A DNA stretch of 64,000 nt, taken from assembly GCA_964574355.1 (NCBI GenBank), contig CAZNMD010000002.1, positions 16,595-80,594 on the forward strand, given 5' to 3'. Source of the DNA: an uncultured Candidatus Saccharibacteria bacterium. Lineage in GTDB: Bacteria > Patescibacteriota > Minisyncoccia > Phycocordibacterales > DSPV01. Below the pieces are notes generated by a model. It made no database searches. It had not been told where the DNA came from and saw nothing but the letters and a program-made list of their open reading frames with translations. Within the stretch, counting starts at the first letter, position 1. Every line of letters begins with the position of its first letter. Shown one piece after another: positions 7,428-51,515 of the stretch. Made by a program: the position numbers and the translations under genes.

Positions 7428-7934
7428 TTAGGCTTTTTCTATAATCGTTGAGATGTTTCTTGGTCCCTTTCTTGCTGGGTCTGCGATTTTAAAGGGAACA
7501 GTAAAAAGGTTAACGGCGCGATCGAGGCGGGCTTGTAAGAACTTCGGGTCAAGATATTTTTCTCGGCCTTTAAGGAAGAGATCTACCTTAATCCGGTGTC
7601 CTTCTGAAAGCCAGTCTGAAGCCTCTTTCATTTTTCGTGACAAATCATGGTCGCTTGTACCGATGGTGATTTGCACCTGTTTTATTTCAACAGTCTGTGT
7701 TTTTGCTTTGCTTTGCTTCTGTTTTTTGCTTTCGATGTACTGGTATTTGCCGAAATCCATGATCTTTGCGATCGGTGGAGTAGCATTTGGCGAAATCTCA
7801 ATAAGGTCAAGTCCTGCGTCTTGTGCGGCTCGCAAGGCGTCACCCAAAGAGAGTTCGCCTAGGTTTGTACCATCTGCTCCGATTACTCGAAGAAGTGGTG
7901 CTTTTATCTGATGATTAACCCGTGCTTTAGACAA
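7428..7934 (-). CDS. infC: translation initiation factor IF-3, TTG start
   Basis: INHQIKAPLLRVIGADGTNLGELSLGDALRAAQDAGLDLIEISPNATPPIAKIMDFGKYQY. The first codon is TTG, in keeping with the atypical infC start codons used for autoregulation. Confidence 0.85.
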   Translation of the reverse strand: MSKARVNHQIKAPLLRVIGADGTNLGELSLGDALRAAQDAGLDLIEISPNATPPIAKIMDFGKYQYIESKKQKQSKAKTQTVEIKQVQITIGTSDHDLSRKMKEASDWLSEGHRIKVDLFLKGREKYLDPKFLQARLDRAVNLFTVPFKIADPARKGPRNISTIIEKA

Positions 7935-8000
7935 GATCTAGTTCCTTTTTGTGATAGTAACGCGGAGTTATTTATAGCATATATAGTCTTTCGACGCAAC

Positions 8001-8043
8001 AAAAAGGGCGATAAGAAAAGGGCGGGTCAAAATGTACCCGCCC
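8001..8043 (-). terminator. rho-independent terminator of small ORF P1
   Basis: Minus strand: GGGCGGGT-acatttt-GACCCGCCC followed by TTTTCTTATCGCCCTTTTT. Confidence 0.6.
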
Positions 8044-8051
8044 GTTCCTTT

Positions 8052-8270
8052 TTAGGACCTTACGACCCGATACTGTTGTGCAAAATGTGCGGCTCCACCG
8101 CACAGGATGAAATGCATGATGCAGTCTGTATTAGTTGGTTCCCGGCCTAACTCAACTCCGGTAACCCAACGATTAAAAGGGTCGTGAATAGCTATGTCTG
8201 TTTGTAAACGTAGGTACTCTCTTAGGTTAACTTCTATGGGTGCGGGGGGTTCTGTGTTTTCGGTAGGCAC
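8052..8270 (-). CDS. small hypothetical protein P1 (72 aa), paralog of P2
   Basis: GTG start preceded by AGGAGG with a 6-nt spacer; own terminator; C-terminal ...CIMHFILCGGAAHFAQQ aligns with P2 ...LINHWMTAGGAEMFHQK. Confidence 0.5.
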   Translation of the reverse strand: MPTENTEPPAPIEVNLREYLRLQTDIAIHDPFNRWVTGVELGREPTNTDCIMHFILCGGAAHFAQQYRVVRS

Positions 8271-8340
8271 AGCGCACCTCCTTTCTTTCCATAGTGTATG
8301 CCTCTCTTTTCAAGAGTCAATCTCTATGGTGGATAAATGT

Positions 8341-8382
8341 ATTTTTTTTACAAAAAAACCGAACCAAAAAACGGATTCGGTT
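8341..8382 (-). terminator. terminator of small ORF P2
   Basis: Minus strand: CCGAA...TTCGG hairpin followed by TTTTTTTGTAAAAAAAA. Confidence 0.45.
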
Positions 8383-8396
8383 GTTCTGAATATGGG

Positions 8397-8609
8397 TCAG
8401 ATACATATCTCCCCAGAGCGTATTTTTTGATGAAACATTTCTGCTCCACCAGCTGTCATCCAATGGTTGATGAGTTCAATGTTGCTTACTTCGTGCGCTG
8501 GTTTTTGTAGTGCCCATGCGGTATTTCGTCGATGATCCTCGTCACTAAGAATTGTTCCTAGTTCTCTCTCGGCAAGTCGGTCTCCTGGCATTGAATATTG
8601 GTCACACAC
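8397..8609 (-). CDS. small hypothetical protein P2 (~70 aa from the GTG start), paralog of P1
   Basis: AGGAGG, 6 nt, then GTG, the same arrangement as P1. The ORF track's longer version (to 8699) lacks a ribosome-binding site. Sequence MCDQYSMPGDRLAERELGTILSDEDHRR...NHWMTAGGAEMFHQKIRSGEICI. Confidence 0.45.
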   Translation of the reverse strand: MCDQYSMPGDRLAERELGTILSDEDHRRNTAWALQKPAHEVSNIELINHWMTAGGAEMFHQKIRSGEICI

Positions 8610-8734
8610 AGAACCCCTCCTTGTTTTTGTCTTCTTATAGTGTACGCTTCTTGATTTTATACAACAAGCCACTTGTGAACTGTGGTACATAAATAACACC
8701 GCAGTCAGGATAACCCTGGTGCGGTGTGTTTGGC

Positions 8735-8977
8735 TTATGGATATTCGATCCAGCCATGTTGTCCTTTTGGGGTAAAGTTCACGGTTGCCTGTGGTTCTTC
8801 TGCAAAGCCGATAACATGAGTTCTTCCTCGAAATGTAATGGAGTTATTGGTCTCCATGTGAGAAGATTCGACGATAAAAAGGATTCTAACGTCTCCACTT
8901 CGAAACAGCAGTTTTTTCCTTTGGGGGTCGAACTTCTTTGGACCGCCCGTAAGGGGAAAGCGATCTGTTCGTCTCAT
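8735..8977 (-). CDS. small hypothetical protein P3 (80 aa)
   Basis: ATG preceded by AGGAG; unrelated in sequence to P1/P2; followed by a hairpin. Confidence 0.45.
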   Translation of the reverse strand: MRRTDRFPLTGGPKKFDPQRKKLLFRSGDVRILFIVESSHMETNNSITFRGRTHVIGFAEEPQATVNFTPKGQHGWIEYP

Positions 8978-9037
8978 AATCTCCTATAACCATACTCATC
9001 TTTTTTCTTTTGTCACGTGGTGAGTAAGGTTGTATGT

Positions 9038-9496
9038 TTATGAAAGATATTTTTTACTTGCCCAGTAATAGACGAGTACGCGTAAGGCAAATGCCGTCAT
9101 TTCAATGTATCCACTGAGGTTATAGGTATAAAACAAAAGACCATATATGCGGGCACACCCACTGACGATGAGTATATATAACGTAGAAAGCAGTAGTATT
9201 TCTTTTGGGTCAAATCCTTGATAGCTGTGCTTTATAACTCGTGTTGAGTAGAGAACCCCAAGGAAGGTGATAAGCGGATACACAAAAACAGTTACTATGT
9301 TTTTCCAGAAAAAATCTGCTTGTATAAATGTTGACCAAGTAAGGTCAAAGGCGAGCCCAAGAAGCATTGGGATCATAAAACCTGCCTGTAGCCAATGAAG
9401 CAGGGCAATTTTCCAGCTTTCTGTTTTTTTCTTAGCGTGCATGGGGTGGTGTATATGGTCTACCCGCCGCTTCTTCACGATGAACCATTTCTTCAT
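9038..9496 (-). CDS. integral membrane protein
   Basis: 152 aa, 4 predicted transmembrane helices, basic N-terminus; a 50-codon hydrophobic upstream ORF overlaps its start. Confidence 0.55.
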   Translation of the reverse strand: MKKWFIVKKRRVDHIHHPMHAKKKTESWKIALLHWLQAGFMIPMLLGLAFDLTWSTFIQADFFWKNIVTVFVYPLITFLGVLYSTRVIKHSYQGFDPKEILLLSTLYILIVSGCARIYGLLFYTYNLSGYIEMTAFALRVLVYYWASKKYLS

Positions 9497-9719
9497 AATT
9501 GTTCACAAAAATTCTATATCCTTCAGCAACAGCAATTTCAAAAATGAGTATTGAAAAAGCTATAATGAGTGTGATGCGGAGAGATTTGGTCATTTGTTTT
9601 TAGTAGTGTCCTTAATAGTACCATCGGTGAGCATCGCGTCTTTAGGTACCGTTTAAATAGTATATTGTTATAATGAAAAGGCGGGGAAAATAGTATATTA
9701 ATTATTTAACGTAACGTAT

Positions 9720-9968
9720 ATGGAAACTCCTTCAGGTGGTGACGAGACAATGAAAAAGCTTGAGTCAACGCTTGCGTTTGTTGGGCCATTGTCTCCAGAA
9801 CAAAAGGCCAGGGCTATAGAGGTTTGTGAAACTCCTCTTGAAAATACATGGGCAATTGTAAAGGCAGATGGAACGATTGAGTATCGTGTTTCAAATACAG
9901 AAGATGGTTCTGATGTGTTGGGAAGTGAAGTAGAAGCCGATGTTGTTGCAGCCGGGTTTCTTGGGTAA
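9720..9968 (+). CDS. small hypothetical protein (likely starts at the internal ATG, MKKLESTLAF...)
   Basis: ORF preceded by an extended -10 (TGtTATAAT) and GGTGGTGA; followed by a terminator. Confidence 0.4.
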   Translation: METPSGGDETMKKLESTLAFVGPLSPEQKARAIEVCETPLENTWAIVKADGTIEYRVSNTEDGSDVLGSEVEADVVAAGFLG

Positions 9969-9995
9969 GAGAACGCTCAAATAAATAAAGTATAT

Positions 9996-10028
9996 TAAAA
10001 ACACAACCAGGTACGGTTGTGTTTTTGT
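9996..10028. terminator. bidirectional terminator
   Basis: ACACAACC-aggtac-GGTTGTGT followed by TTTTGTGT. Confidence 0.65.
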
Positions 10029-10039
10029 GTGACGACAGA

Positions 10040-10486
10040 TTATGCTGCCATGTTGGTGTGAATCAACACTTCCTCTGGTTCCCAGTAGATGTCACCTCCT
10101 TCCTGATCAGAGGTGACAACATAGATGTGTCCCACTCCACCAATAGCTTCACGGGGACAGTAGAGTGCGTGAGGAACTCCGGCTGGTACGACGATCGCAC
10201 CTTGCTGTTGAGGGTTTCTGCTGACGATCTCCCCGTTCATTTCCATGAGAATGGTGACATCTCCCCATTGGTGGATGTACACCTTTTCTTTCTGAACGTG
10301 TTTATGGAAGGGTGTTGCCGAACCTGCCACCATACAGACCTTGCGTATGCCAAGTGTTCTTGATCGAGGACTTGCCTCGTCATCAGTTACCGCGATGGGT
10401 AGTAGGGTCCCATTTCCTGTGTATGGTTTGAAAATCCGTGTTCCTTTGGAAACGTGATTGAGAATGTTGGGTAAGATAATAGTCAC
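10040..10486 (-). CDS. cupin-domain protein
   Basis: HKHVQKEKVYIHQWGDVTIL ... VVPAGVPHAL, the two cupin motifs. Confidence 0.65.
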   Translation of the reverse strand: MTIILPNILNHVSKGTRIFKPYTGNGTLLPIAVTDDEASPRSRTLGIRKVCMVAGSATPFHKHVQKEKVYIHQWGDVTILMEMNGEIVSRNPQQQGAIVVPAGVPHALYCPREAIGGVGHIYVVTSDQEGGDIYWEPEEVLIHTNMAA

Positions 10487-10599
10487 AATGGCTCCTTAGA
10501 TGTTGAGGTTTGTGGTTTGGTACGTCTTCCGGGGAGAAAGCTATCAGAAAGGGAAGGTGGTGTCGAGGATGGAAGAGAGCTTAGGGGATGATGTTAAAA

Positions 10600-10640
10600 C
10601 TTTTTAAATAAAACCTGTCCACCGAAGTGGACAGGTTGGA
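10600..10640. terminator. bidirectional terminator
   Basis: AAAACCTGTCCAC-cgaa-GTGGACAGGTT. Confidence 0.6.
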
Positions 10641-10650
10641 GGACGAATCT

Positions 10651-10983
10651 CTAGGTTGCACGGACCGTTTGTTTTGCTTTTTCTTGATGTCTGCGGGCAA
10701 GCTTGTAGAAGGGGCAGTTATGGAACAAACCAGCAAGTTGTGCAAAGTCGTCCCGTCGCGTGAAATTCGCGCACTTGAAACAGTAGGTGTTTCTATTTGT
10801 GTGGCGAATGTGTCGGTGGCTTACATCGCTTGTTTCATGAATCCAATCGAATGTTCGACGAGAGCCGCATTTTGGACACTTACTTCCAAGCAGTCTCAAA
10901 AAATCAAAAAACAAGTAGAATACGCCGAGGATCAGAGCCAGAACGATTATGAAGGCCAAAATACCTAATATCTTGAGGAGCAT
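10651..10983 (-). CDS. membrane-anchored zinc-ribbon protein
   Basis: N-terminal transmembrane helix, then CPKCG ... CFKC cysteine pairs. Confidence 0.5.
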   Translation of the reverse strand: MLLKILGILAFIIVLALILGVFYLFFDFLRLLGSKCPKCGSRRTFDWIHETSDVSHRHIRHTNRNTYCFKCANFTRRDDFAQLAGLFHNCPFYKLARRHQEKAKQTVRAT

Positions 10984-11350
10984 GCGAATCCTTTTTGTTA
11001 AGGTTGTTTGGGAACAAAATTATCTGGTAAATATAATAACTTAATAAAAGTTATTTGTCAATATCATTTCGATTTTTCAACGTAAAACACGAAGGTGTTT
11101 TGTTCATTTTAACCATCAAAAAATCACCTTTTTTGGGCGATTTTGTTTTGATGCTGTGTGATGTCTATTCGTTTTATTTATAACAAAAAAATTTTAAATA
11201 AGTGGATAACTTAAAATTGTACGTAGTCCTATTTTAAAAAAGTGGGGCACTGTCATACAGGAGTACTCTTTTTGGTGAAGTATGTATTGAATATTTCGTG
11301 CCCGAATCTTTACAGTCATTATCCTTGCATGTTGTGTTGGTGTTATTTAT

Positions 11351-11380
11351 TTGACCAGTGAACGTTTGTTCACTTATACT
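11351..11380 (+). promoter_or_regulatory. LexA-repressed promoter: -35 TTGACC, SOS (Cheo-type) box GTGAACGTTTGTTCAC, -10 TATACT
   Basis: The GAAC-N4-GTTC palindrome sits exactly in the spacer between the -35 and -10 hexamers, directly upstream of lexA. Confidence 0.7.
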
Positions 11381-11386
11381 CTATGC

Positions 11387-11581
11387 ATGTCACAAGGCGA
11401 ACACACCATTGCTATTTCATACGAAATTGAGCGGCTCAATCAGATTATTGATAAGAAGATCATCAAGGGTGTTAATTACTGTGCCGAAGCAAAAAAGCAT
11501 CGTGAACTTTTGCGACTGTTGAAGCGAGACAAGAGTCAGTTTAGTTTAAGCAAAGTGTTTTCGTTTATAGGTATCTTCTAA
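11387..11581 (+). CDS. small ORF (64 aa) that is first in the LexA-controlled transcript
   Basis: Follows the SOS promoter directly with no Shine-Dalgarno sequence (possibly leaderless); helical, Lys/Leu-rich; ends 1 nt before lexA. Confidence 0.3.
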   Translation: MSQGEHTIAISYEIERLNQIIDKKIIKGVNYCAEAKKHRELLRLLKRDKSQFSLSKVFSFIGIF

Positions 11582-11582
11582 T

Positions 11583-12149
11583 ATGCATAACGAATACCAA
11601 GATAAAATTGTTTCTTTTTTCAGACGCAATAAGCGCCTGCCTTCATATCGTGAAGTGATGAAATTACTTGGATTCAAATCGACTAATGCCGTGCACAAGT
11701 TGATGAACAAACTCGTGGACGCTGGTGTGCTTAATCGTGATTCAAGTGGAAAGTTAGCACCTAGTAACATTTTTGGAGAGGTCGCTCTCTTGGGGTCGGT
11801 AAAAGCAGGATTTCCATCACCGGCCGAAGAAGAATTGCAGGATACGATGAGCCTCGATGATTTTTTGATTGAGAAAAAAGAATCAACCTATATGCTGACG
11901 GTAGATGGAGATTCCATGATAGATGCTCATATAGCAGAAGGGGACATGGTTTTGGTTGAACGGACTAATAAAGCGAAAGATGGAGAAATTGTTATTGCCG
12001 AAGTAGATGGAGAGTTTACGATGAAGTATTTCAGGCAGTTAGGTAACAAAGTATGGCTTGAACCGGCAAACAAGAAATATAAACCTATTTACCCGACCGA
12101 AAGTTTAAATATCACTGCCAAAGTCAAAGCAGTTATACGAAAGATTTAA
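11583..12149 (+). CDS. lexA: LexA repressor (winged helix-turn-helix plus S24 peptidase)
   Basis: N-terminal YREVMKLLGFKSTNAVHKLMNKLVDAGVL; C-terminal GDSMIDAHIAEGDMVLVE ... GEIVIAEVDGEFTMKY. Confidence 0.85.
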   Translation: MHNEYQDKIVSFFRRNKRLPSYREVMKLLGFKSTNAVHKLMNKLVDAGVLNRDSSGKLAPSNIFGEVALLGSVKAGFPSPAEEELQDTMSLDDFLIEKKESTYMLTVDGDSMIDAHIAEGDMVLVERTNKAKDGEIVIAEVDGEFTMKYFRQLGNKVWLEPANKKYKPIYPTESLNITAKVKAVIRKI

Positions 12150-12158
12150 GTGAGGTCT

Positions 12159-13466
12159 ATGAAACCATTATCTTTGCGCTCTTTCCCGAGGGCCATACTT
12201 CATATTGATGGTGATTGTTTTTTTGCATCATGTGAAGTTGCTCGCAACCCATCTCTAAAAGGTAAACCCGTCATTACTGGGCGAGAGCGTGGGATCGCTT
12301 CTTCCATGACGTATGAGGCGAAAGCACGAGGAGTAAAACGGGGGATGCAACTTTCCGAAATCAAAAAGATTTGTCCGGACGCTATTATTCTTCCTTCCGA
12401 TTATGAGAGCTATAGTCTGTATTCCAAGCGAATGTTTGAGATAGTGAGACGCTATACTCCTGATGTTGATGAGTACAGCATTGATGAATGTTTTGCTGAC
12501 CTGACTGGTCTTAAGAGGTCTCTTCGGATGTCGTACGAGCAAATGGCTGAGCGTATTAAGTCGGATCTTGATTTGGAATTAGGTATGACTTTTTCAGTTG
12601 GGCTTTCGGTAAACAAGGTCACCGCAAAAATCGCGTCTAAATGGAAAAAGCCTTCAGGCCTAACTATTATTCCCGCTTACAATCTTCACCTCTATCTTGA
12701 AAAGCTTCCCATCGAGAAGATATGGGGTATCGGTCCGAACACAACTGCTTACTTAAATAAATTTGGTATCAGGACTGCACTTCAGTTTGCTGAAAAGAAA
12801 AAAGAGTGGGTGAAGGAGAAAGTTACGAAACCTCATCAAGATATTTGGGAGGAGTTGCGTGGCGGTTTTGTTTATAAGCTAGAGACCGAAGAAAAGCACG
12901 ACTACAAATCTATCGGGAAAACACGAACGTTTACGCCTCCGTCGAAAGACAGGGAATTTGTATTTTCGGAGTTGTCCAAAAATATTGAAAATGCTTGTAT
13001 CAAGTTACGCAGACACGGATTGTATACCAAAGAAATTGTTTTCTTTTTAAAGAGACAGGATTTTAGTCATGCGGGGCTTGAATTGAAACTTTCTGTCCAT
13101 GCTTGTATCCCACAAGCTATTTTGGAAGTGGTCGAGAAACATTTTGATGAGGTGTATGTTCCTAATACCTTATATCGTGCAACTGGCATTGTCTTGATGA
13201 AACTGTCTGCTTCAAATTTAGGGACGATGGATTTGTTTGGAAATTATACTGAAGTTGAGAAGATGACTCGTGTATATGGTTCGGTAGACGAGGTTTCTAG
13301 AAAGTATGGAAAGCATACGTTATTTTTAGGATCAAGTTTTATTGCAATGAAAAACCATCAACACGAAGGAGAGCGGGGAGTTACTGCGGAAAGAAAAAAG
13401 CCTCTCTTGGTGGGAGAGACGGATCGAAAGCATTTAAGGGTGCCTCTGTTAGGGAAGGTTAGGTAG
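12159..13466 (+). CDS. dinB: Y-family DNA polymerase (DinB/UmuC-like, Pol IV)
   Basis: ILHIDGDCFFASCEV ... SIDECFADLTG ... GIGPNT; start overlaps the lexA stop. Confidence 0.8.
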   Translation: MKPLSLRSFPRAILHIDGDCFFASCEVARNPSLKGKPVITGRERGIASSMTYEAKARGVKRGMQLSEIKKICPDAIILPSDYESYSLYSKRMFEIVRRYTPDVDEYSIDECFADLTGLKRSLRMSYEQMAERIKSDLDLELGMTFSVGLSVNKVTAKIASKWKKPSGLTIIPAYNLHLYLEKLPIEKIWGIGPNTTAYLNKFGIRTALQFAEKKKEWVKEKVTKPHQDIWEELRGGFVYKLETEEKHDYKSIGKTRTFTPPSKDREFVFSELSKNIENACIKLRRHGLYTKEIVFFLKRQDFSHAGLELKLSVHACIPQAILEVVEKHFDEVYVPNTLYRATGIVLMKLSASNLGTMDLFGNYTEVEKMTRVYGSVDEVSRKYGKHTLFLGSSFIAMKNHQHEGERGVTAERKKPLLVGETDRKHLRVPLLGKVR

Positions 13467-13528
13467 GGGGTGGAGGGAGGGGAGGTTAGAACCTAATTGA
13501 GTATGATGATTATGATATAGTTTAATCT

Positions 13529-13732
13529 ATGAAAGAAAACTGGTTTAAGATTGCCGTTTTGCTTCTTATCGGAATATTGGTTTACCAGATCTCCGTATTT
13601 CTTAATCAAATGGCGTGGAGCTACTCTTATTCCCAAAGAGGAGAGTGTTTGGAGAGGATTTACGCCAGAGGAAACAGTGACCTATTCGACAGCAAAGCAA
13701 ATTGCTTCGATATCATTGCTCCACTTCAATAA
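13529..13732 (+). CDS. small membrane or secreted protein (67 aa)
   Basis: N-terminal hydrophobic helix IAVLLLIGILVYQISVF; weak ribosome-binding site. Confidence 0.3.
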   Translation: MKENWFKIAVLLLIGILVYQISVFLNQMAWSYSYSQRGECLERIYARGNSDLFDSKANCFDIIAPLQ

Positions 13733-13799
13733 AAAGTTTTTGTGATTGGTGGGATTTCAGTAGAACCTGCTCATAGAAATAATATTTGATTTTTCTGCG

Positions 13800-15245
13800 C
13801 TAGGTTTTATGAGAATCTACGTATTTTGCAGTAGGAACCAGGTACTTTGCAGTGCGAAGGAGTTGGCTTATTTCGGTTTTATAGTTGGGAAAGTAGCTCA
13901 GGGCAACAAGGAAGTAACGTGAAATTTTTTCATCATCAGCATAGGAACTCAGAAACTTACTTTTTATTGAGGCTTTTAGTCCTGGGCTTCCAAATTTACC
14001 CACTAGAATGAAATAGTACCCAATCAACATAAAATTATTGGAGTGATATATTTTTTCTTTATCTATCTCGCTGACATGGGAGTGCAGTTTTTTAGCCTTG
14101 GTTAGAGTACGAAGGATAAGTATCTTTTGATAGACGTAGGAACTATCGTCTAATACAGTAGTCAAAAGCGATTGCACCCTTTTTTTATCTATGAAAACCT
14201 CCAGGTACGAAGTTATTGTGCTAGAAAAAGAGGGGTCGAGTAGTTTCTTTTTAAGAATGGAAGCTAGTGGGATTTCAGATTTTATTTCTTTGAATCTGTT
14301 TATGCAAAAATTCACTAAAGTCTTGTCTAACCCTTTGTTTGCTACAGTCCAAAGCCTTTTGAGTTGAGCGAGTGTGTATTTGTTAGTAGCGTCTAGTTTA
14401 AGGCCGTATTGTATACCTTCCATCTCTTCCGAAAATTGATTTGCAGGGGTTAGGTAGCTCTCAGCACTAAGGACGTGCGTTTTACCAGCGGCCAAATGCA
14501 AATTTAATGGACGCATAAGCTCTGTGAGTTTGGCAATTGCTCTACGGATCTCTTTTTCTTCAAGCGCAAAAACACGGATATCGTCCATGAATCTGTAATA
14601 TGTAAATTTCTCATTTATCATCATCTCGTCTATCTCGTGTAAGTAGACATTTCCTAGAAAGGAAGAAGGGTCAGACCCTTGGGGAATACCTATGCCACTC
14701 GCGTGCCAAGTATTCAATAAGTATCCAAGCTTTGATGTAACGTCCTTTGACACGTTTAGTTGATTTAGAATATCAAGTAATTTTTTTATTTGAATGTGTT
14801 CAAAGTAGGCGCTTATATCTGTCTTTAGTAAAAAACCACTGGGGTGTTTATTAAAAAGTTTCTCTGTTTTTGCATGAAATCTCCTCCAAGCTTCTACGCC
14901 ATTTTCGAAGAAATATTTCTCACTTTTAGTCACTCTGTGAGAGAAAACTATTTCTCGATTCAGTAATGAGGTATCAACTGTCTTGGCGAATTTATTTGTT
15001 AAGAGTTGGTAGTAAACTCGATCAGTGAGACGCATGAAGTGTCCTGGGCGTAAAATGAGACTTGCTTTTGGAATATCTAGAACAATTACTGAACCTGGGG
15101 CAGGAGAATTGTAATTGACTGAGATCAATGACGCAGGGTCATCAAGATAGTCGGCGTAGTCAAATACATCAGGCCAAAAATCATTCTTTATGTCCTGTTT
15201 CAGATACTTTATTGCTGTCCCGATGGCTTTTTTGCTGAATCGCAT
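13800..15245 (-). CDS. reverse transcriptase, standalone, bacterial defence/retron/Abi-like class
   Basis: RT motifs: IPKASLILRPGHFMRLTDRVYYQLL (motifs 1/2), LLKTDISAYFEHI (A), GIPQGSDPSSFLGNVYLHEID (B'), YYRFMDDIRVF (C, unusual FMDD), LHLAAGKTHVL (D/E). Followed by a ~190-aa helical C-terminal domain. No maturase/endonuclease domain and no adjacent effector gene. Confidence 0.85.
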   Translation of the reverse strand: MRFSKKAIGTAIKYLKQDIKNDFWPDVFDYADYLDDPASLISVNYNSPAPGSVIVLDIPKASLILRPGHFMRLTDRVYYQLLTNKFAKTVDTSLLNREIVFSHRVTKSEKYFFENGVEAWRRFHAKTEKLFNKHPSGFLLKTDISAYFEHIQIKKLLDILNQLNVSKDVTSKLGYLLNTWHASGIGIPQGSDPSSFLGNVYLHEIDEMMINEKFTYYRFMDDIRVFALEEKEIRRAIAKLTELMRPLNLHLAAGKTHVLSAESYLTPANQFSEEMEGIQYGLKLDATNKYTLAQLKRLWTVANKGLDKTLVNFCINRFKEIKSEIPLASILKKKLLDPSFSSTITSYLEVFIDKKRVQSLLTTVLDDSSYVYQKILILRTLTKAKKLHSHVSEIDKEKIYHSNNFMLIGYYFILVGKFGSPGLKASIKSKFLSSYADDEKISRYFLVALSYFPNYKTEISQLLRTAKYLVPTAKYVDSHKT

Positions 15246-15510
15246 TGCAGGTAGATTCTGCCGATTAATTTTGGTTTTGGCAACTCTAAAGAGCTAGGAC
15301 ATGCAATTAGTTAAGGTGCTTATAGCAGAGATAGGAGATAGGGCGTGTCCGATTAAATCGTAAAAAGAGTGTTGTAATTTTGTCGCTTCGCATCATGTTC
15401 GGAGTGGGGAACCGCGGAGGACCGCTTTCGGTCACGGATAATCATTCGCCGTCGCGAATGATTTCCTCGACCCCGGCTCGTCTGTTTTTTCTACTGAAAA
15501 AACATGACTC
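15246..15510 (-). ncRNA. candidate structured ncRNA or leader associated with the RT (upstream, same strand)
   Basis: 265 nt with no credible ORF and multiple perfect hairpins: TCATTCGC-gacg-GCGAATGA, TGTTTTTT-cagtag-AAAAAACA, GACCG-cttt-CGGTC. Confidence 0.3.
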
Positions 15511-15514
15511 CGCC

Positions 15515-15566
15515 TTTCGATTCCCCCACGCAAAGCGCGCAGGTGCTTTGCTCATCTCCACCAAAG
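15515..15566 (+). repeat. inverted partial copy of the tmRNA 3' end (T-loop 3' half plus acceptor 3' strand), interrupted by a 25-nt hairpin
   Basis: TTCGATTCCCCC[ACGCAAAGCGCGCAGGTGCTTTGCT]CATCTCCACCA on the + strand, versus the tmRNA 3' end GGGGGTTCGATTCCCCCCATCTCCACCA on the - strand. Confidence 0.7.
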
Positions 15567-15599
15567 AAAAATCGCTCACCTTTCGGCGAGCGGATTTTT
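15567..15599 (-). terminator. rho-independent terminator of ssrA
   Basis: Minus strand: AAAAATCCGCTCGCC-gaaa-GGTGAGCGATTTTTCTTT directly after the CCA end. Confidence 0.7.
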
Positions 15600-15603
15600 C
15601 AAC

Positions 15604-15988
15604 TGGTGGAGATGGGGGGAATCGAACCCCCGTGCAAGATGAAAATCTAGGCGGGTCTACGGCACGTAGTCTGCTTTGTTTACGAGAGTGAAGATAGAAA
15701 GCGGACAAAAGTCTTCATTCTCGGTGTTTCTTTATTTAAAACAATAGCCGAAACGATCTACTGTTCGAACTTGGGATATATCGCCCGCTTTCCTCGTCCA
15801 AGTGCCGAAGAAAGAGACGTCACGTAGGACTAACCGAAGTTAGGCGAACGCGAGAGCAAAACCGTACGGAGACGGAATTGCCTTGGTCACAGAGCTGTTG
15901 CCAGGTGTGTTTTGAAGCGGTTTAACGAGTCACTTCATCTCGGTGCCGCGCGCAAAGAGTGTGCATCCTGTCGATGCCGATCATCCCC
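15604..15988 (-). ncRNA. ssrA: tmRNA (SsrA), standard one-piece form
   Basis: 5' end GGGGATGATCGGCATCGACAGGATGC resembles E. coli GGGGCTGATTCTGGATTCGACGGGAT. 3' tRNA-like end GGGGGTTCGATTCCCCCCATCTCCACCA. Candidate tag frame ...AIPSPYGFALAFA followed by TAA. Confidence 0.85.
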
Positions 15989-15995
15989 GTGGCGT

Positions 15996-16442
15996 TTATT
16001 CTCCTTTCAATGTTCTTTGAATGTCGCGTTCTGATTCTCGTTTTTTTATCGAGTCGCGTTTATCAAATTCTTTTTTGCCTCGCGCAATCGCAATACGAAT
16101 CTTCATGCGACGTCCTTTACTATACACTGAAATTGGCACTATTGTCAAACCTTTCTTGGCTTCAAAACCTGCAAGACGTGAAAGTTCTTCTTTGTTCAAG
16201 AGAAGTTTTCGTGGCCTTTTTTCATCGTAGGCTTCTTTAATGTTTTTTGGTTGAAGTGGAATGCAGGTGGCTCCCATTAGAAACGCTTCGCCTCCACGAA
16301 TAGTGATATATGAACCATCAAGAGAGAGACGGCCCGCGCGAATCGATTTCACCTCAAAACCAAGCAACTCAATACCCGCTTCGAACTCTTCAAGAAATTC
16401 GAAATTAAAGTGGGCTTTTTTATTGTCGGACAAAGTAGTCAT
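15996..16442 (-). CDS. smpB: SsrA-binding protein SmpB (likely starts at the internal Met, MTTLSDNKKAHF...)
   Basis: NKKAHFNFEFLEEFEAGIELLGFEVKSIRAG ... GEAFLMGA ... KLLLNKEELSRL ... KGLTIVPISVY ... ARGKKEFDKRD. Lies 8 nt upstream of ssrA. Confidence 0.85.
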   Translation of the reverse strand: MTTLSDNKKAHFNFEFLEEFEAGIELLGFEVKSIRAGRLSLDGSYITIRGGEAFLMGATCIPLQPKNIKEAYDEKRPRKLLLNKEELSRLAGFEAKKGLTIVPISVYSKGRRMKIRIAIARGKKEFDKRDSIKKRESERDIQRTLKGE

Positions 16443-16574
16443 GCGGCAATCATACCGTGCATACTTCGTATTGAAAACACAGAGGAGAGAGATCTTTCCA
16501 ATATAAAAAAGGTATGGTACTTTCATGGTGGGTGAAGGGCTCTTTAAACAAAAACCTCAATAGGAGACTTTTAT

Positions 16575-16967
16575 ATGAATGTAGGATGGGAGGATAGTCT
16601 GCTGCTCTTAGAGAGCAATGACCCGTACGACCAAATGTTGGTAATTGGTATTGTTCTCATTATGGGAGCGCTCTGTGTGTTGCTGTACATTTTGGCTGCC
16701 ATTGTGCGCTCAATGATGAAATGGGCATGTCCTTCATGTGGTCGGTTCAATATGACAAGGGAAGTCATTCGTCGAGAGGATTTTTTCAGAGGTTTGCTTC
16801 CGTGGCAAGTTCTCTGTGATAAGAACATTGTCTGTCGATCGTGTGGATACAGGCAAGAAATCAGTTACGCCAAGGATGTTCGTTCCTGGCCAGCTCGATG
16901 GGCATATCGAATGCGACGGCGGTCTCATGTCAAATCACCTCGCACAATCTCTCTTCCGGCCCGCTGA
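16575..16967 (+). CDS. membrane-anchored zinc-ribbon protein
   Basis: Transmembrane helix followed by CPSCG ... CRSCG; same architecture as the 10651-10983 gene. Confidence 0.5.
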   Translation: MNVGWEDSLLLLESNDPYDQMLVIGIVLIMGALCVLLYILAAIVRSMMKWACPSCGRFNMTREVIRREDFFRGLLPWQVLCDKNIVCRSCGYRQEISYAKDVRSWPARWAYRMRRRSHVKSPRTISLPAR

Positions 16968-17059
16968 CTTTTGTCAGCCAGACCTCGCTTTAGGGCGGGG
17001 TTTTATTTTTTATAACAAAAAGTCGGCAGGATAATTGAAAATGCTATAATGGCCACGTT

Positions 17060-18964
17060 ATGCAAAAAAACCAGAAAAAACAACCAGGAACTCCACGCCG
17101 TGAAGCCGAACGCTTCATTTGGAATATTGTCGTTTCTATCGCAATTCTTTTACTCATTGTTGGAATGTATACAACCTTTAATTCTTCAGCTAAAAAAGTT
17201 GAAGATGTTGCTATTTCAGAAGTTGCGAAGCAAGTAGCAAAAGGAACGATAGATAAAATAATTGTTGAAGGTACCGAGCTTACGATTACGTATAACGATG
17301 GAACAGCAGAACAAAAGAGTAAAAAAGAACTCGAAAGTTCTCTTACAGAAACACTAGCCAACTATGGTGTTACCAAAGAAGCACTCGATAAAATTTCTAT
17401 TGAAATAAAAACTGAAGGAGGTTTTGGGTACGTGTTATTTAATTTACTGCCGATTATTTTCCCTATCCTCCTTCTTTTGTTTTTTGTGTGGATTTTGTCT
17501 CGCCAAGTGAAAGGGGCAGGTATGCAAGCGTTTACGTTTGGACAATCACGGGCGCGTTTGGTGTCTCCAGAAGATCGAAAGCAGCGTATTACCTTTAAGG
17601 ATGTTGCGGGTGTAAAAGAGGCGAAAGAAGAATTGGCAGAAATTGTTGATTTTTTGAAGAATCCAAAGAAGTTTCTTGAAATTGGGGCACGTATTCCAAA
17701 AGGTATTCTTCTTATGGGTGCGCCAGGTACAGGAAAGACACTACTTGCTCGAGCCGTTGCGGGCGAAGCGGGTGTCGCATTCTTCTCTATTTCAGGATCT
17801 GAATTTGTTGAGTTGTTTGTGGGTGTGGGTGCGTCGCGTGTCCGTGATTTGTTTAAAGTTGCAAAACAGACTGCTCCAGCCATTATTTTCGTTGATGAAA
17901 TTGATGCGGTAGGACGAGTTCGTGGTACTGGTATGGGAGGTGGAAACGATGAGCGTGAGCAAACTCTCAATCAAATTCTTGTTGAGATGGATGGTTTTGA
18001 GCCGAATGAAAAAGTTATTGTCATGGCTGCAACGAATCGTCCTGACGTCCTTGATCCAGCTCTTTTGCGTCCTGGTCGCTTCGACCGACGTGTCGTTTTG
18101 GATTTACCTGACAGATCTGATCGCGAGGCGATTTTAACTATCCACTCTAAAGAGAAGCCATTTGCTGAAGATGTGAACTTGCCTCTTATTGCTGAACGAA
18201 CACCAGGTTTTTCAGGGGCAGATTTGTTCTCTCTTATGAACGAAGCAGCTATTCTTGCGGCACGTGAGAATCGAAAGAAGGTTGCTCAGTTTGATCTTAT
18301 TCGAGCGATCGAAAAGGTTATGCTTGGTCCTGAACGAAAGAGCCACTTGTTGTCTGTGAAAGAAAAAGAAATTACGGCATATCACGAAGCCGGTCACGCG
18401 CTTGTTGCCTCGGTGCTGCCAGACGCTGATCCTGTTCACAAGATTTCAATTATTGCGCGCGGTAGGGCGGGTGGGTATACACTCAAGCTTCCGTTTGAAG
18501 ATAAAAAATTACAATCACGAAAAGCGTTTCTTGATGATATTGCTATGTCGCTCGGTGGGTACGTTGCTGAAAAGCTTATTTTTGGAGACCTTACTACTGG
18601 CCCATCAAACGATCTTCAGGTCTCAACGGCTCTTGCTCGGGATATGGTCACGAAGTATGGTATGTCGGATAAACTTGGCCCAGTTGCACTTGAAGGTACA
18701 GGCGGGCGACCGATTTATGGAGGACGTGGTGTTGAAAGCGGAGAATATTCTGATCGTGTGGCGGCTGAAATTGATAGTGAGGTGACACGTATTATGACTG
18801 AAGCAAAACAGGTCGCAGAAAAAGTCTTACACGAAAAAAGAGCAGTACTTGATGTGATCGCAAAGCGGCTTATTGAAACTGAAACTATTGAACGTGAGGA
18901 GTTTGAACAAATACTCGTTGCGAACGGTATTCAACCAAAGAAAAGAGAGGAAGTTTTAGCGTAG
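17060..18964 (+). CDS. ftsH: ATP-dependent zinc metalloprotease FtsH
   Basis: Two N-terminal transmembrane helices, AAA module [25 protein letters not shown], second region of homology, HEAGHA zinc motif. Confidence 0.9.
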
Positions 18965-18999
18965 GTGTCTTCTTTGGCAAAGTGTTTGATGTGTGACTG

Positions 19000-19392
19000 T
19001 TGCTTGAAAAGAGGGCAAGGGGTACCATTATGTATGGACATCGGAGGTCTCCAATGGGTACAACCAATAATGCGTTAGAGCGGTTTTTCGCACATTGGGT
19101 ACAACTGGTTCAAAGTGGTCAATGGGTGCCAGTTATCTCCAATGGTTGGATCAGGGTGCGTCGTCCGGATAGAGATATTCGGTCGATTCCCCCAATTGGT
19201 GCTGTGACAGTTTGTTTGCACGGCGATGATGCAAGCAATCCCCAAATGCATTTCGATAATAAGGGGAAGCTTCTCGGTCTCAGTGAGGAAGAAGTATCGG
19301 ATCTTTATCGGGCTTCAGATTTTTCGGATCCAGGAGGATCCGCTGCGGAGTTGCGCCGCAGGTTACTCGCTCCGATACTACCGGTCTCGTAA
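19000..19392 (+). CDS. hypothetical protein (probably starts at MYGHRR...)
   Basis: ORF with an upstream AAGAGGGCAAGGGG; no recognisable domain. Confidence 0.35.
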   Translation: MLEKRARGTIMYGHRRSPMGTTNNALERFFAHWVQLVQSGQWVPVISNGWIRVRRPDRDIRSIPPIGAVTVCLHGDDASNPQMHFDNKGKLLGLSEEEVSDLYRASDFSDPGGSAAELRRRLLAPILPVS

Positions 19393-19410
19393 GATCGTGA
19401 TCAGGACGCA

Positions 19411-19436
19411 AAGGACTCTATGGAGAGTCCTTTTTG
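19411..19436 (+). terminator. rho-independent terminator
   Basis: GGACTCT-atgg-AGAGTCC followed by TTTTT. Confidence 0.65.
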
Positions 19437-19540
19437 CTATGAAAATGAGGCCTGAAGAGTTATCCACAAGGATACTTCTAACGGAGTTGACGGTATTTCT
19501 TGTGAGTATATACTGTTTATATCGATCACTTTTCGTGATT

Positions 19541-19578
19541 GACCCCAGGACCACATCTTTGATGGGGTCCTTTTTTTA
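19541..19578 (+). terminator. second hairpin plus T-run, after a 34-codon hydrophobic mini-ORF
   Basis: GGACC...GGTCC followed by TTTTTTT. Confidence 0.45.
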
Positions 19579-19646
19579 TCTCAATTTTTCTTTTCTATCA
19601 TAGGGGCTTTCAATTATGTGAAGCATCTTCTATGCTTAGGATATAT

Positions 19647-19720
19647 CCACCCTTAGCTCAGTTGGTTAGAGCACCGAGCTTATACCTCGGGGGTCCTTGG
19701 TTCGAATCCAAGAGGGTGGA
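19647..19720 (+). tRNA. tRNA-Ile with anticodon TAT (UAU)
   Basis: Acceptor CCACCCT/AGGGTGG, D-arm TAGCTCAGTTGGTTAGAGCA, anticodon stem CCGAG/CTCGG with loop CTTATAC, T-arm CTTGG-TTCGAAT-CCAAG. CCA is not encoded. Confidence 0.7.
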
Positions 19721-19780
19721 CATTCATTCGTCTGTTGATAGAACCCTCTTTGGTTCGAACCTGTGAAAGGGTTCGTTGTG

Positions 19781-21979
19781 TTACTCAAAATGTATTTCTT
19801 CTTTGCTTTCGGTAATCGCAGCGTTGAGTGAGGGATACTTTGAAAGAGACGAATCTTCTTTAAGAAGTTCTGTTGCTTCTGTTCTTGCAGCTTCAATCAT
19901 TTTTATATTTTGAAGTGCTTCCATACCGATATCAGAAAGACCCCATTGTTTTTTGCCGTATAAACCACCTGCGCCACGAGATTTTAAATCAAGTTCAGCC
20001 AATTCGAATCCATTTTTTGCTGTTGCTAGCGCTTTAAGGCGAGTGACGGAAGTGGCATTTTTTGTGTCAGCAAACGCAAAGCAGTATGCCTGGTCTGAGC
20101 TTCGTTGCACACGACCGCGTAGTTGATGGAGCTGGGCTAGTCCAAAGCGTTCAGCACCCTCAATTAAAATCACCGTGGCGTTAGGTACATTGACACCAAC
20201 TTCAACAACGGAAGTTGCCGCTAAAATATTAATTTTTTTTGCTTTGAAATTAGCCATTACGGAATCTTTTTCGTCCGGTTTCATTTTGCCGTGCAATACC
20301 CCAATTTCGTATTCAGGAAAAATTTCTTTTTTAAGGCGGGCCGCTTCTGAGGTAACTGATTTTGCGAGGAGCGCCATTTCTTTTGTTGGATCAGGTTCAT
20401 CAATGCGTGGACAAATGACGTAGGCTTGTCGACCCTTTTTTAATTCGGTACGGACACGTTCGTAGGTTGCTTCGCGTTTATCGGGGGTGACCACCTCGGT
20501 GATAATGGGTTTTCGTCCAGCTGGTAATTCATCAAGCACGGTCAAATCAAGATCACCGTACATCGTCAGCGAGAGTGTTCGAGGGATAGGTGTTGCTGTC
20601 ATTGAGAGGAGGTGAGGAACGGGTTCATCTTTATGTATAAGCGAGCGTCGCTGATTTACACCGAAGCGGTGCTGTTCGTCGATGATAGCCAAAGCCAAGT
20701 GCTTAAACTGAATAGATTTTTGAATGAGGGCGTGGGTGCCAATAACAATACTGATTTCGCCATTTTTTACCCATTTCAAAAGTTGTGTTCGTGAAATATC
20801 GGTCGCTATTTTTGGGTTTACTTTTGAGGGGAATTTTTTGCATCCACTTCCGGTGATGAGGGCAATACCAATAGGAAGGTGCGAAAAATATTCCATAAAT
20901 GATTGGAAGTGCTGGTTTGCCAGAATTTCTGTCGGTGCCATATAGGCAGCCTGAAGTGTTCCAAAGTTTTGACCGCGAGGTTGTGTGGTAATTGCTGCGT
21001 AACATGCCGCCGCCGCAACGTATGTTTTACCACTCCCGACATCACCTTCAAGGAGTCGTGACATGGGTTCCCCTTTTTTAAAATCATTGAGAATGGCCTG
21101 AATCGCTTTCTGTTGTGCGTTTGTAGGAGAGAAGGGGAAGCGTTTCGCAAAGGTTTCGATATGTTTCTCAGGTGTTTCAATAATAAACGCAGTTTCTTTT
21201 GCTAACTCTTGTTTATCTTTGAGTCGTCCCAGTTGAATAAAAAAGACTTCTTCAAATGCAAAACGTTTTCGTGCTGAAGCAGCATCGTCTTTGTTTTGGG
21301 GAGCATGTATCCAGATAAGAGCCGTGCGCCGTTTGGGGAGATGATAACGTGTCAAAATAGTTTCAGGAATAGGATCGTCGATAGAATCGAGTACGCCTTT
21401 TTGAATTAATTTTGAAATAGCGTGATACATCCAGTTACTGGTGACGCCACGAGATTCTGGATACACGGGGTAGAGTGTATGAGCGGTACCGCCTTCACCA
21501 AAGAGAGAATCACCAACGCCCGTTGGTAAAACAGTGATCTTTTCAAGTTTTGGATTTGAAAGATAGAGTTCATCTTTACGAACCGAAACTTTTCCTTCTG
21601 CGCGTATGAGTGCACCTTCCGGATACATTTTTGCAATGTAGGGCTGGTTGAACCACATCGCTTTTATCGAGCCTGATTCGTCTTCAATTTTCCCTTCAGC
21701 CATCGGCATGTTCGTCCGAAATCCTTTTTTCATTTTAAGACCAGAGAGCCGACCAAAAATAACAGCGAGCTCTCCTTTTTGGATTGAAGCGATGCCGCGG
21801 ACTTCGGCTGTGTCGCCGTAGCGTGAAGGGAAATGAAAAAGGAGATCACCAACGGTTATAATGCCAAGTTTTTTTAGTGCCTTTTCTTGTGGAGGTAAAA
21901 CACGAATATGGGAAACAAGTGGGTCGGAAAGGAGTATAGCCATACGGCTTATTGTAGGAGATGCACTCAAGAAGGACAA
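19781..21979 (-). CDS. recG: ATP-dependent DNA helicase RecG
   Basis: 732 aa, wedge domain plus superfamily-2 helicase: DVGSGKTYVAAAA, DEQHRFGV, and the TATPIPRTL motif. Confidence 0.9.
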   Translation of the reverse strand: MSFLSASPTISRMAILLSDPLVSHIRVLPPQEKALKKLGIITVGDLLFHFPSRYGDTAEVRGIASIQKGELAVIFGRLSGLKMKKGFRTNMPMAEGKIEDESGSIKAMWFNQPYIAKMYPEGALIRAEGKVSVRKDELYLSNPKLEKITVLPTGVGDSLFGEGGTAHTLYPVYPESRGVTSNWMYHAISKLIQKGVLDSIDDPIPETILTRYHLPKRRTALIWIHAPQNKDDAASARKRFAFEEVFFIQLGRLKDKQELAKETAFIIETPEKHIETFAKRFPFSPTNAQQKAIQAILNDFKKGEPMSRLLEGDVGSGKTYVAAAACYAAITTQPRGQNFGTLQAAYMAPTEILANQHFQSFMEYFSHLPIGIALITGSGCKKFPSKVNPKIATDISRTQLLKWVKNGEISIVIGTHALIQKSIQFKHLALAIIDEQHRFGVNQRRSLIHKDEPVPHLLSMTATPIPRTLSLTMYGDLDLTVLDELPAGRKPIITEVVTPDKREATYERVRTELKKGRQAYVICPRIDEPDPTKEMALLAKSVTSEAARLKKEIFPEYEIGVLHGKMKPDEKDSVMANFKAKKINILAATSVVEVGVNVPNATVILIEGAERFGLAQLHQLRGRVQRSSDQAYCFAFADTKNATSVTRLKALATAKNGFELAELDLKSRGAGGLYGKKQWGLSDIGMEALQNIKMIEAARTEATELLKEDSSLSKYPSLNAAITESKEEIHFE

Positions 21980-29408: not shown

Positions 29409-29544
29409 ATTTAGTTTAGTTTAAAATAAGGTACTACAATTTAAAAAGAGGGTAGGGACCGCGAGTACGCTTTTCGACCCTTACAGGGTCAGTACCCGTT
29501 TCCGATTTGTTCAGTATCAGAATACTTCACAAATAACGGAGAAC

Positions 29545-29595
29545 GGCTTCGAATCCCACCACGCGACTGAAGCAGTTCAGTCGCTCTCTCCGCAT
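29545..29595 (+). repeat. inverted partial copy of the tRNA-Ser 3' end, interrupted by a 24-nt hairpin
   Basis: GGCTTCGAATCCCACC[ACGCGACTGAAGCAGTTCAGTCGC]TCTCTCCGCAT, versus the reverse complement of the tRNA-Ser 3' end GGGTTCGAATCCCACCCTCTCCGCA. Confidence 0.7.
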
Positions 29596-29627: not shown

Positions 29628-29633
29628 CAAATG

Positions 29634-29722
29634 CGGAGAGGGTGGGATTCGAACCCACGGTCCAGTTTAACCCGGACAACACCTTAGCACGGTGCCGCTT
29701 TCGACCGCTCAGCCACCTCTCC
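29634..29722 (-). tRNA. tRNA-Ser with anticodon GCT (type II, long variable arm)
   Basis: GGAGAGG acceptor, D-stem GCT/AGC, anticodon loop GTGCTAA, variable arm GTCC...GGAC, T-arm GTGGG-TTCGAAT-CCCAC, 3' CCTCTCC-G. Confidence 0.8.
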
Positions 29723-51508: not shown

Positions 51509-51515
51509 TACATTG

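Follow-up and report, generated by a model that had tools for sequence, protein, structure and literature searches.

We analysed a 64-kb stretch of DNA from an uncultured Candidatus Saccharibacteria bacterium (64,000 nucleotides of contig CAZNMD010000002.1, hereafter the window), in which a reverse transcriptase (RT) gene lies downstream of the transfer-messenger RNA (tmRNA) gene ssrA. The RT gene (13800..15245, minus strand) has an ATG start and encodes 481 aa, with an RT domain at approximately residues 45-265 and an alphaRep-like helical domain at approximately residues 290-481. Between it and ssrA lie, reading away from the ATG on the same strand, a promoter-like site (TTGCCA-17 nt-CAGAAT, 15255..15283), an AT-rich unstructured spacer (15284..15391), a structured element (15392..15563), and the intrinsic terminator of the tmRNA gene (15573..15592). 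What we call the original prediction had read the RT and the 265 nt upstream of it as a two-part system, in which the structured region is the non-coding RNA (ncRNA) of the RT in the manner of the defence-associated RTs (DRTs) DRT2 and DRT9. Our analysis points to a different arrangement, namely a probable single-gene enzyme of Class 1 standing beside an element that belongs to the flanks of tRNA-type genes.

RVT_1 is the sole Pfam domain in the 481-aa RT (E 3e-16, residues 113-260), and the Pfam scan found no maturase, endonuclease, helix-turn-helix (HTH), or other extra domain, in agreement with the original prediction as far as the first two are concerned. Motif C, F219-M220-D221-D222 with the catalytic aspartates, was read directly from the sequence at 14580..14591 (minus strand). 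FMDD had thus been read correctly in the original prediction, but it is not the unusual motif that it was taken for: motif C is F[A/M/V/T]DD across 20 homologues, so that FMDD is a family trait and no peculiarity of the window RT. The catalytic residues D143, D221, and D222 are invariant in the alignment of these 20 homologues, which means that the catalytic motifs are intact. The AlphaFold model built on this 20-sequence alignment (predicted local distance difference test, pLDDT, 89.7; predicted template modelling score, pTM, 0.88) has residues 292-478 all-helical at a pLDDT of ~90, which bears out the ~190-aa helical C-terminal extension that had been proposed. The invariant tyrosines of the family are Y78, Y201, Y216, Y280, and Y370; Tyr280 (14406..14408, minus strand), a candidate priming residue, lies in the lowest-confidence linker of the model (pLDDT 66-83), between the RT and helical domains. 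An exact-sequence look-up returned no recorded identical entry for the window RT itself.

Class 1 of the UG/Abi RTs is defined by a C-terminal alphaRep fusion, and UG32, UG21, and other groups belong there (Mestre et al., 2022; PMC9226505). The top PADLOC profile for the window RT was RT_UG32 (256 bits, 1.3e-76, profile positions 35-505 of 521), followed by RT_UG21 (233 bits, 1.3e-69, near full length), and the eight best models were UG32, UG21, UG20, UG23, UG19, UG9 (small and large), and Drt8; UG17, a Class 2 group like UG2 and UG28, gave 58 bits as against the 256 of UG32. With the NCBIfam models for group II RT, Drt2, Drt3a, Drt4, Drt5, retron St85, and AbiA, the RT remained far under every cut-off (e.g., Drt2, 43 bits with a cut-off of 390; retron_St85, 39 bits with a cut-off of 235; the group II model TIGR04416, 71 bits with a cut-off of 300). 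In the structural comparison, both domains of the RT model were alignable to Class 1 structures only, with scores of 21.6 for DRT6 (408 residues), 19.8 for DRT4 (403), 17.8 for AbiA (351), 16.7 for AbiK (412), and 16.7 for Abi-P2 (354), while the RTs of diversity-generating retroelements (DGRs), group II introns, DRT2, DRT9, and retrons aligned with the RT domain alone, over ~230-270 residues. Foldseek likewise ranked DRT4/UG15, DRT6, and AbiK at the top. A PDB sequence search gave matches to the RT domain of many families, with no discrimination among them. Judging from profile scores and predicted fold rather than from a reference phylogeny, the RT is a predicted stand-alone Class 1 UG/Abi enzyme, in which an alphaRep domain at the C-terminus is joined to the palm and fingers.

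The mobile-element readings of such an RT found no support at this locus, as the original prediction had already supposed for a group II intron. A retron was ruled out by the St85 score, the lack of any Rfam retron RNA, and an alignment of only ~230 residues, and a group II intron by the TIGR04416 score, the lack of any Rfam intron family at gathering or E-value thresholds, and the RVT_1-only Pfam result; Rfam, run over 13400-15700 at permissive thresholds, returned the tmRNA and chance matches only. A DGR was rejected because no pair of template and variable repeats is present, the only direct repeat of at least 35 nt in 8000-20000 being a duplicate of the tmRNA flank. Profile placement leaves the RT outside the group II intron and retron models and closest to UG32 and UG21.

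Within Class 1, the family of the window RT scores 220-256 bits on both the UG32 and UG21 models, nearly tied, whereas the true UG32 member P0029, which carries the HTH domain PF12728, reaches 596 bits on UG32 and true UG21 members reach 340-444 bits on UG21. This shortfall indicates that the family is not canonical UG32 or UG21. An HTH fusion is reported for UG32 (Mestre et al., 2022; PMC9226505); no UG32-type N-terminal HTH fusion was found in the window RT by Pfam, and its match to the UG32 profile begins at position 35. By word-indexed search we found ~25 close relatives at 40-72% identity; of those with a name, nearly all are Patescibacteria. An exhaustive search of 1.84 billion representatives gave 56 RT clusters at E <= 1e-30. 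By these scores, the RT family is an unclassified subgroup, mostly of Patescibacteria, adjoining UG32 and UG21.

Class 1 enzymes are untemplated and Class 2 enzymes are templated by an ncRNA (PMC12632851); a passage of PMC13174585 likewise describes Class 1 as protein-primed and untemplated and Class 2 as ncRNA-templated. The characterised Class 1 enzymes AbiK, Abi-P2, AbiA, DRT4, and DRT6 make DNA by protein priming with no nucleic-acid template (PMC9508834, PMC12783706). AbiK primes from Tyr44 and Abi-P2 from Tyr61; neither has a thumb, whose position is taken by helices of the helical domain, and both assemble into trimers or hexamers (PMC9508834). In AbiA, the priming residue is Tyr298/303, within the RT-alphaRep linker; DRT4 primes from Tyr125, makes random single-stranded DNA, and needs neither ncRNA nor partner protein; and DRT6 is homologous to DRT4 in structure (PMC12783706). 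By homology with these enzymes, the window RT most likely works as an oligomer, and protein priming followed by untemplated synthesis is its most likely mode of action: the first nucleotide would be joined to a tyrosine of the RT itself, and single-stranded DNA would then be extended from it without an RNA template. We infer from its invariance, and from a linker position like that of the AbiA priming site, that Tyr280 may be the priming residue. By the same analogy we infer an anti-phage role, in which the RT would act alone as a system of the abortive-infection type.

The loci of 13 close RT homologues were compared, with gaps measured to the neighbouring ORFs (loci are cited by our own L numbers). 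The upstream gaps include 65, 45, 1, -4, and ~7 nt and the downstream gaps 87, 37, 74, -4, and 26 nt; the homologues in L018, L019, and L021 have no flanking non-coding DNA. In L019 (2198-8612), the RT is even built into a type I restriction-modification operon, hsdR-hsdM-RT-hsdS, and overlaps hsdM and hsdS by 4 nt each. An all-against-all comparison of 300-nt flanks of the RT homologues revealed no sequence common to the loci. Because many of the flanks are short and the loci share no flank sequence, a flanking ncRNA is not a feature of the RT family. Even with the closest homologue, in L030, whose RT is 72% identical, DNA homology extends no further than the stop codon at one end and 38 nt ahead of the ATG at the other, so that window 15246-15283 is all of the upstream DNA that is conserved with it, and the spacer 15284-15391 has no homology in any other locus compared. 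The promoter-like site, found by a consensus scan and ending 10 nt ahead of the ATG, falls within this conserved stretch; the RT is probably served by a promoter of its own, no more than 40 nt from the ATG and putatively at 15255-15283.

The neighbours of the RT homologues are variable. Those of defence type, which lend some indirect weight to a defence role, are the type I restriction-modification genes of L019, an EcoRI-like methylase in L021, Vsr together with a serine recombinase in L001 and L016, and a TIR protein in L017; others are a NUDIX protein in L002 and a peptidase in L014. No partner gene is conserved beside the RT across the compared loci, which accords with the original prediction that the window RT has none. 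Variable neighbours without a conserved partner fit, if indirectly, a single-gene defence module. An adh_short gene adjoins the RT or lies close to it in L030 (101-862, minus strand) and L015 (8355-9341, plus strand), which we treat as coincidence. The RT homologue of L015 also lies between direct repeats of ~75 nt, 79% identical pairwise and ending in a terminator-like hairpin (5887-5946 and 7518-7577), which suggests a cassette-like insertion.

The structured region upstream of the window RT is real, although smaller than had been proposed. The minimum free energy (MFE) of 15246-15603 gave z = -5.6 (none of 100 shuffles as stable) and that of 15380-15565 gave z = -5.3 (none of 200), and the structure is limited to ~170 nt at 15392-15563, with a GC content of 54%. 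The 147 nt beside the ATG (15246-15392; GC 0.40) gave an MFE z of -0.3. Of the 265-nt structured region in the original prediction, the fold thus stands and its extension to the RT gene does not. No Rfam family matches the element, and two ORFs that overlie it, 15380..15691 (plus) and 15442..15708 (minus), extend into the tmRNA gene and were taken to be spurious.

The element is composed of five segments, of which three repeat the 3' end of the tmRNA. Segment (a) (15553-15563), directly after the terminator, repeats the acceptor 3' strand of the tmRNA in inverted orientation, TGGTGGAGATG being complementary to CATCTCCACCA at 11/11 positions; it is followed by hairpin (b) (15530-15551) and by segment (c) (15516-15527, GGGGGAATCGAA, 12/12), an inverted copy of the T-loop and the T-stem 3' strand. 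Segments (a) and (c), listed as I13 and I5 in our repeat search, are perfect inverted repeats with the tmRNA 3' end. Segment (d) consists of variable hairpins around a core GGGGTCG...GTGACC, and in segment (e) (15396-15412) the tmRNA 3' end recurs in direct orientation, though in degenerate form. Both (a) and (c) are able to pair with (e), closing the element like an acceptor/T-arm helix. Two other sequence matches were set aside: TGGGGGAATCGAAAGG gave six matches in viral contigs, all in unrelated coding or GC-rich sequence and judged to be chance, and a near-match of GGGGGAATCGAC at 19182-19193 was dismissed as lying within a probable coding region.

The fold is supported by covariation among copies of the element. 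MAFFT alignments that included L033 and L003 misaligned the 5' half, and the covariance model was thus built from five better-aligning copies. It scored the trained window copies at 150 bits (the copy beside the RT) and 110 bits, the untrained copy at tRNA-Ser (29440-29595) at 26.5 bits (E ~1e-6), and the untrained copy in L039 at 21 bits. Over seven aligned copies, 84.9% of cells were paired, compared with 66% in shuffled alignments and 39-48% with slid partners, and 19 of the 32 pairs had changes on both sides, figures that favour structure inasmuch as the alignment was fitted to the covariance model. An independent run of RNAalifold gave 16-17 compensatory pairs. The G-U wobbles of the element are on the tRNA-sense strand.

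The element occurs three times in the window, at the tmRNA, tRNA-Ser, and tRNA-Met genes, and only once beside an RT; five of the eight tRNA-type genes in the window are without it. The tRNA-Ser copy (29440-29595, minus strand) lies downstream of tRNA-Ser (29633-29722) and carries inverted copies of its T-arm and acceptor 3' strand (GGTGGGATTCGAA, 13/13) as well as a direct repeat of its 3' end. The tRNA-Met copy (51305-51469, minus strand), downstream of tRNA-Met (51515-51586), carries the corresponding inverted copies, an (e) segment matching at 15/17 positions, and then a second terminator. Among the tmRNA loci of related Paceibacteria, which were collected by anchoring on SmpB, the element follows the tmRNA terminator with no RT nearby at L033:7304-7484, L037:3138-3303, and L039:4921-5077. 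Where an RT is present, its relation to the element shifts: in L003 the element (5728-5862) follows tRNA-Glu, on the same strand as the RT and upstream of it; in L017 (7497-7650, minus strand) it follows tRNA-Gln and the RT is convergent on the opposite strand; and in L030 a block homologous to the tmRNA 3' remnant, terminator, and structured region of the window lies downstream of the RT. The end sequences of each copy vary with the tRNA gene beside it, and (e) repeats the tRNA 3' end in direct orientation at 16/16 positions in L037 and at 16/16 scored positions in L017 (18 nt by eye).

Since copies exist without an RT, and position and strand shift relative to the RT, the element is independent of the RT. 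The structured stretch is a conserved element of tRNA-type gene flanks, not the partner RNA of the RT. Our keyword search of the literature found no description of such a tRNA-flank element beyond tDNA islands and plant t-elements, and the element appears to represent an undescribed family.

The RT itself reached ssrA as part of an islet. In the window, smpB (15996-16526, minus strand; identified from the ORF list and SmpB homologues) is directly upstream of ssrA (15604-15988, minus strand; Rfam RF00023, 113 bits, model positions 1-374), whose terminator was found by a terminator scan and has a homologous hairpin in L030. Beyond the RT lie a 67-aa ORF (13529-13732), a Y-family polymerase gene (12150-13466; Pfam IMS), and an S24 peptidase/LexA-like gene (11583-12149; Pfam Peptidase_S24), all on the plus strand, the polymerase pair (11583-13466) being convergent with the RT; this co-cargo is absent beside the RT homologues in the compared loci. 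As the distal boundary of the islet we take a decayed duplicate of the tmRNA 3' remnant, terminator, and segments (a), (b), and (c) (11052..11160, minus strand). It was recognised as a 59-nt direct repeat (15515-15573 versus 11067-11125), whose alignment extends through a degenerate terminator and the CATCACACAG remnant of the tmRNA end; the covariance model gave a weak match at 11052-11115. The distal copy is AT-rich and decayed and the proximal copy GC-rich and intact. Immediately beyond the RT stop, no displaced piece of the tmRNA 3' end was found at up to 3 mismatches; the actual duplicate is 2.7 kb further on. The region around it, 10900-11400, has a GC content of 25-32%; it is bordered on one side by the LexA-like gene and on the other by an ORF of 110 aa that has Cys motifs and, by prediction, a membrane segment.

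In relatives, the gene order recG, ftsH, smpB, ssrA, and then infC-rpmI-rplT is kept, and the interval between ssrA and infC is variable (1.8 kb in L035, 3 kb in L039, 7.7 kb in the window). Homology to the nearest strain, L031 (SmpB 98%), ends at the last tmRNA bases (~15606), and in that strain a large serine recombinase gene (L031:4429-6063, minus strand) overlies the final ~37 nt of ssrA and opens a different island of small ORFs, which makes the tmRNA 3' end an active integration hotspot in this lineage. The flank duplicate, the break in homology with L031, and the variable ssrA-infC interval uphold the earlier view that the DNA between the tmRNA terminator and the convergent LexA-like/polymerase pair was acquired. 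In tDNA islands, as a passage of PMC4383910 has it, a regenerated target and a displaced 3' fragment mark the ends. By this usual logic, the acquired islet measures ~4.4 kb and comprises (d) and (e), the RT, the 67-aa ORF, the Y-family polymerase, and the S24 peptidase; (a)-(c) lie within the proximal repeat, so only (d) and (e) of the element are counted inside the insertion. The islet may have been inserted Campbell-style at the ssrA 3' flank, for which one homologous crossover of a circular fragment would suffice. In L030, the RT and adh_short lie between a regenerated tmRNA end (at the contig start) and its displaced flank. Two related RTs have thus reached ssrA in different packages, which accounts for the element preceding the RT in the window and following it in L030.

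Two further features of this gene cluster differ among the relatives. A GIY-YIG ORF of 83-91 aa lies between smpB and ssrA at L031:3687-3962, L032:2632-2907, and 6478-6729 of both L033 and L034, in ~400 nt without counterpart in the window. The window tmRNA gene encodes the 3' CCA (15604-15615, CATCTCCACCA), which those of L033 (7259-7272, CATCTCCACAAA) and L037 (3084-3097, CATCTCCACTTG) do not, so that CCA must be added after transcription there.

Taken together, we consider it probable, though well short of certain, that the window holds a single-gene Class 1 UG/Abi RT in an ssrA islet and that the structured stretch upstream is not its partner RNA. Several observations weigh against this reading. 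The proposed mechanism depends on homology at the level of the fold, with 12-17% identity, UG32 and UG21 received an inconclusive rating as predicted defence systems from Mestre et al. (2022; PMC9226505), and several RT homologues stand among housekeeping genes (gyrA in L004). As for the islet, the distal repeat is only 73% identical, and no recombinase or integrase domain was found in the ORFs scanned over 9038-15245, with the shorter ORFs of 7934-9038 left out. As for the element, 4 of ~14 RT loci (window, L003, L017, and L030) lie within 400 nt of an element-bearing tRNA-type gene, a proximity that exceeds what a random gene would show and that we attribute to shared integration hotspots; the covariance model missed the L003 copy and barely touched that of L033, and its negatives in other RT loci are weak evidence.

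What the element is, apart from the RT, can be explained in two ways, both tentative and neither better placed than the other. It may, first, be a recombination scar or site, that is, an integrase-less miniature island at tRNA-type genes resembling a cis-mobilisable element, in which (e) would represent the target's displaced 3' fragment, the inverted copies a folded or palindromic attachment (att) site, and the RT islets additions at either att-like end. The direct copies of the tRNA 3' end in (e) (L037, L017, and tRNA-Met), sometimes followed by a second terminator, speak for this, a direct 3'-end copy being the textbook signature of tDNA islands in a passage of PMC4383910; so do the position of the RT islets, which in L030 is the tmRNA end and in the window the far side of (e), and the serine-recombinase island of L031 at the same tmRNA end. 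It sits less well with the synteny of the element after ssrA across lineages whose SmpB is 66-78% identical to that of the window, and no integrase was found with any copy. Moreover, the hairpins are kept through compensatory changes, and decay has affected the displaced duplicate but not the GC-rich proximal copy, which suggests selection for function rather than a scar.

Just as possibly, the element acts in cis, as RNA within the 3' trailers of tRNA and tmRNA genes; here (a) and (c) would pair with (e), or with the 3' strand of the gene itself, as a mimic of the acceptor/T-arm minihelix. Such a mimic could signal processing or termination or could act as a decoy of tRNA-end enzymes, by a logic comparable to that of the plant mitochondrial t-elements, for which a passage of PMC1920247 offers a precedent. 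This would account for the perfect or near-perfect complementarity of (a) and (c) to the last ~23 nt of the local gene in three tRNA contexts, for the covariation and the strand of the G-U wobbles, for conservation after ssrA in several lineages, and for the decay of the displaced copy. Against it, a canonical terminator stands between gene and element, so that transcription would come only by read-through or from another promoter; in addition, two of the window's three copies have a degenerate (e), and only 3/8 tRNA-type genes of the window have the element.

Alternatives to the RT half of our reading are much weaker. It is unlikely that the RT has no part in defence and belongs instead to a DNA-damage or mutagenesis cassette with the S24 peptidase and Y-family polymerase, or to housekeeping in reduced genomes. 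The shared ~4.4 kb islet, the housekeeping neighbours of some homologues (gyrA in L004, the peptidase in L014), and the inconclusive defence score of UG32 and UG21 (PMC9226505) would agree with such a role, but no other homologue locus has the polymerase pair, which, being convergent with the RT, is not co-transcribed with it, while other loci have restriction-modification, TIR, Vsr, or recombinase neighbours and the family is patchy, as the 56 clusters recovered from the exhaustive search attest.

Still less credible, in our view, is the two-part system of the original prediction, of the kind seen in DRT2, DRT9, and DRT10, with an ncRNA that both scaffolds and templates the synthesis of complementary DNA (cDNA). 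The element is truly structured and covaries, both in the window and in L003 it precedes the RT on the same strand, and the ncRNAs of UG2 and UG28 also lie upstream of their RTs (PMC9226505). The RT, however, is Class 1 and not Class 2 by profile hidden Markov models and fold; the element stands without an RT at two other tRNA genes of the window and at the tmRNA of three relatives, follows the RT in L030, is on the strand opposite to it in L017, and has no room in L018, L019, or L021; its ends match the neighbouring tRNA gene and nothing in the RT locus; and a terminator separates it from the tmRNA gene, with the conserved promoter-like site of the RT downstream of it. The expected conservation of the region with the RT is likewise missing, since the flanks are 0-65 nt in several homologous loci and share no sequence. 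Least likely of all is a link in trans, in which this single RT of the genome would act on RNAs of the several tRNA-end mimics, for instance with their acceptor-like 3' ends as primers or templates, and with the RT-adjacent copy as the autonomous one and the tRNA-Ser and tRNA-Met copies as non-autonomous: the four RT loci beside such an element would agree with it, but the Class 1 fold lacks a thumb, the copies are old, divergent, and each tailored to its own tRNA gene, orientation is variable, and elements occur in contigs without an RT.

If our reading holds, the window RT would extend the alphaRep-fused, untemplated polymerases of the Abi/DRT4 type into Patescibacteria. The family, which falls between UG32 and UG21, is small and confidently modelled and has a candidate priming tyrosine, and is thus a tidy target for the study of protein-primed random synthesis in Class 1. 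The locus also teaches that a structured region beside an RT is insufficient to call an ncRNA-guided system. The element, for its part, could bear on tRNA 3'-end processing or on the targeting of islands to tRNA genes in reduced genomes, and the link in trans, if true, would be a bacterial counterpart of reverse transcription that is tRNA-primed or dependent on tRNA-like structures.

Compared with known systems, the resemblance of the window locus to DRT2, DRT9, and DRT10 is superficial: structured non-coding DNA lies upstream of the RT on the same strand, but those systems have a Class 2 RT, and here a Class 1 RT stands beside an element that is not conserved with it and is found without it. 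The islet resembles Islander-type tDNA islands in its insertion at the ssrA 3' end, the regenerated target, and the displaced, duplicated 3' fragment, and differs from them in that no integrase was found in it and that the duplicated block also holds the terminator and part of the structured element. UG32 and UG21, both Class 1 and experimentally uncharacterised, are the two best profile matches at near full length, from which the family is set apart by its lower scores and by the absence of the HTH reported for UG32. DRT4 (UG15) and DRT6 (UG12) share with the window RT the stand-alone gene and the RT with C-terminal alphaRep, although identity is only 12-14%, the NCBIfam Drt4 model gives 45 bits with a cut-off of 450, the host is a member of the Patescibacteria, and the priming Tyr125 of the DRT4 palm has no demonstrated equivalent in the window RT. 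With AbiK, Abi-P2, and AbiA, the window RT shares two domains with helical repeats replacing the thumb; it is shorter than AbiK and lacks the HEPN domain of AbiA, but its invariant tyrosine in a flexible linker resembles Tyr298/303 of AbiA.

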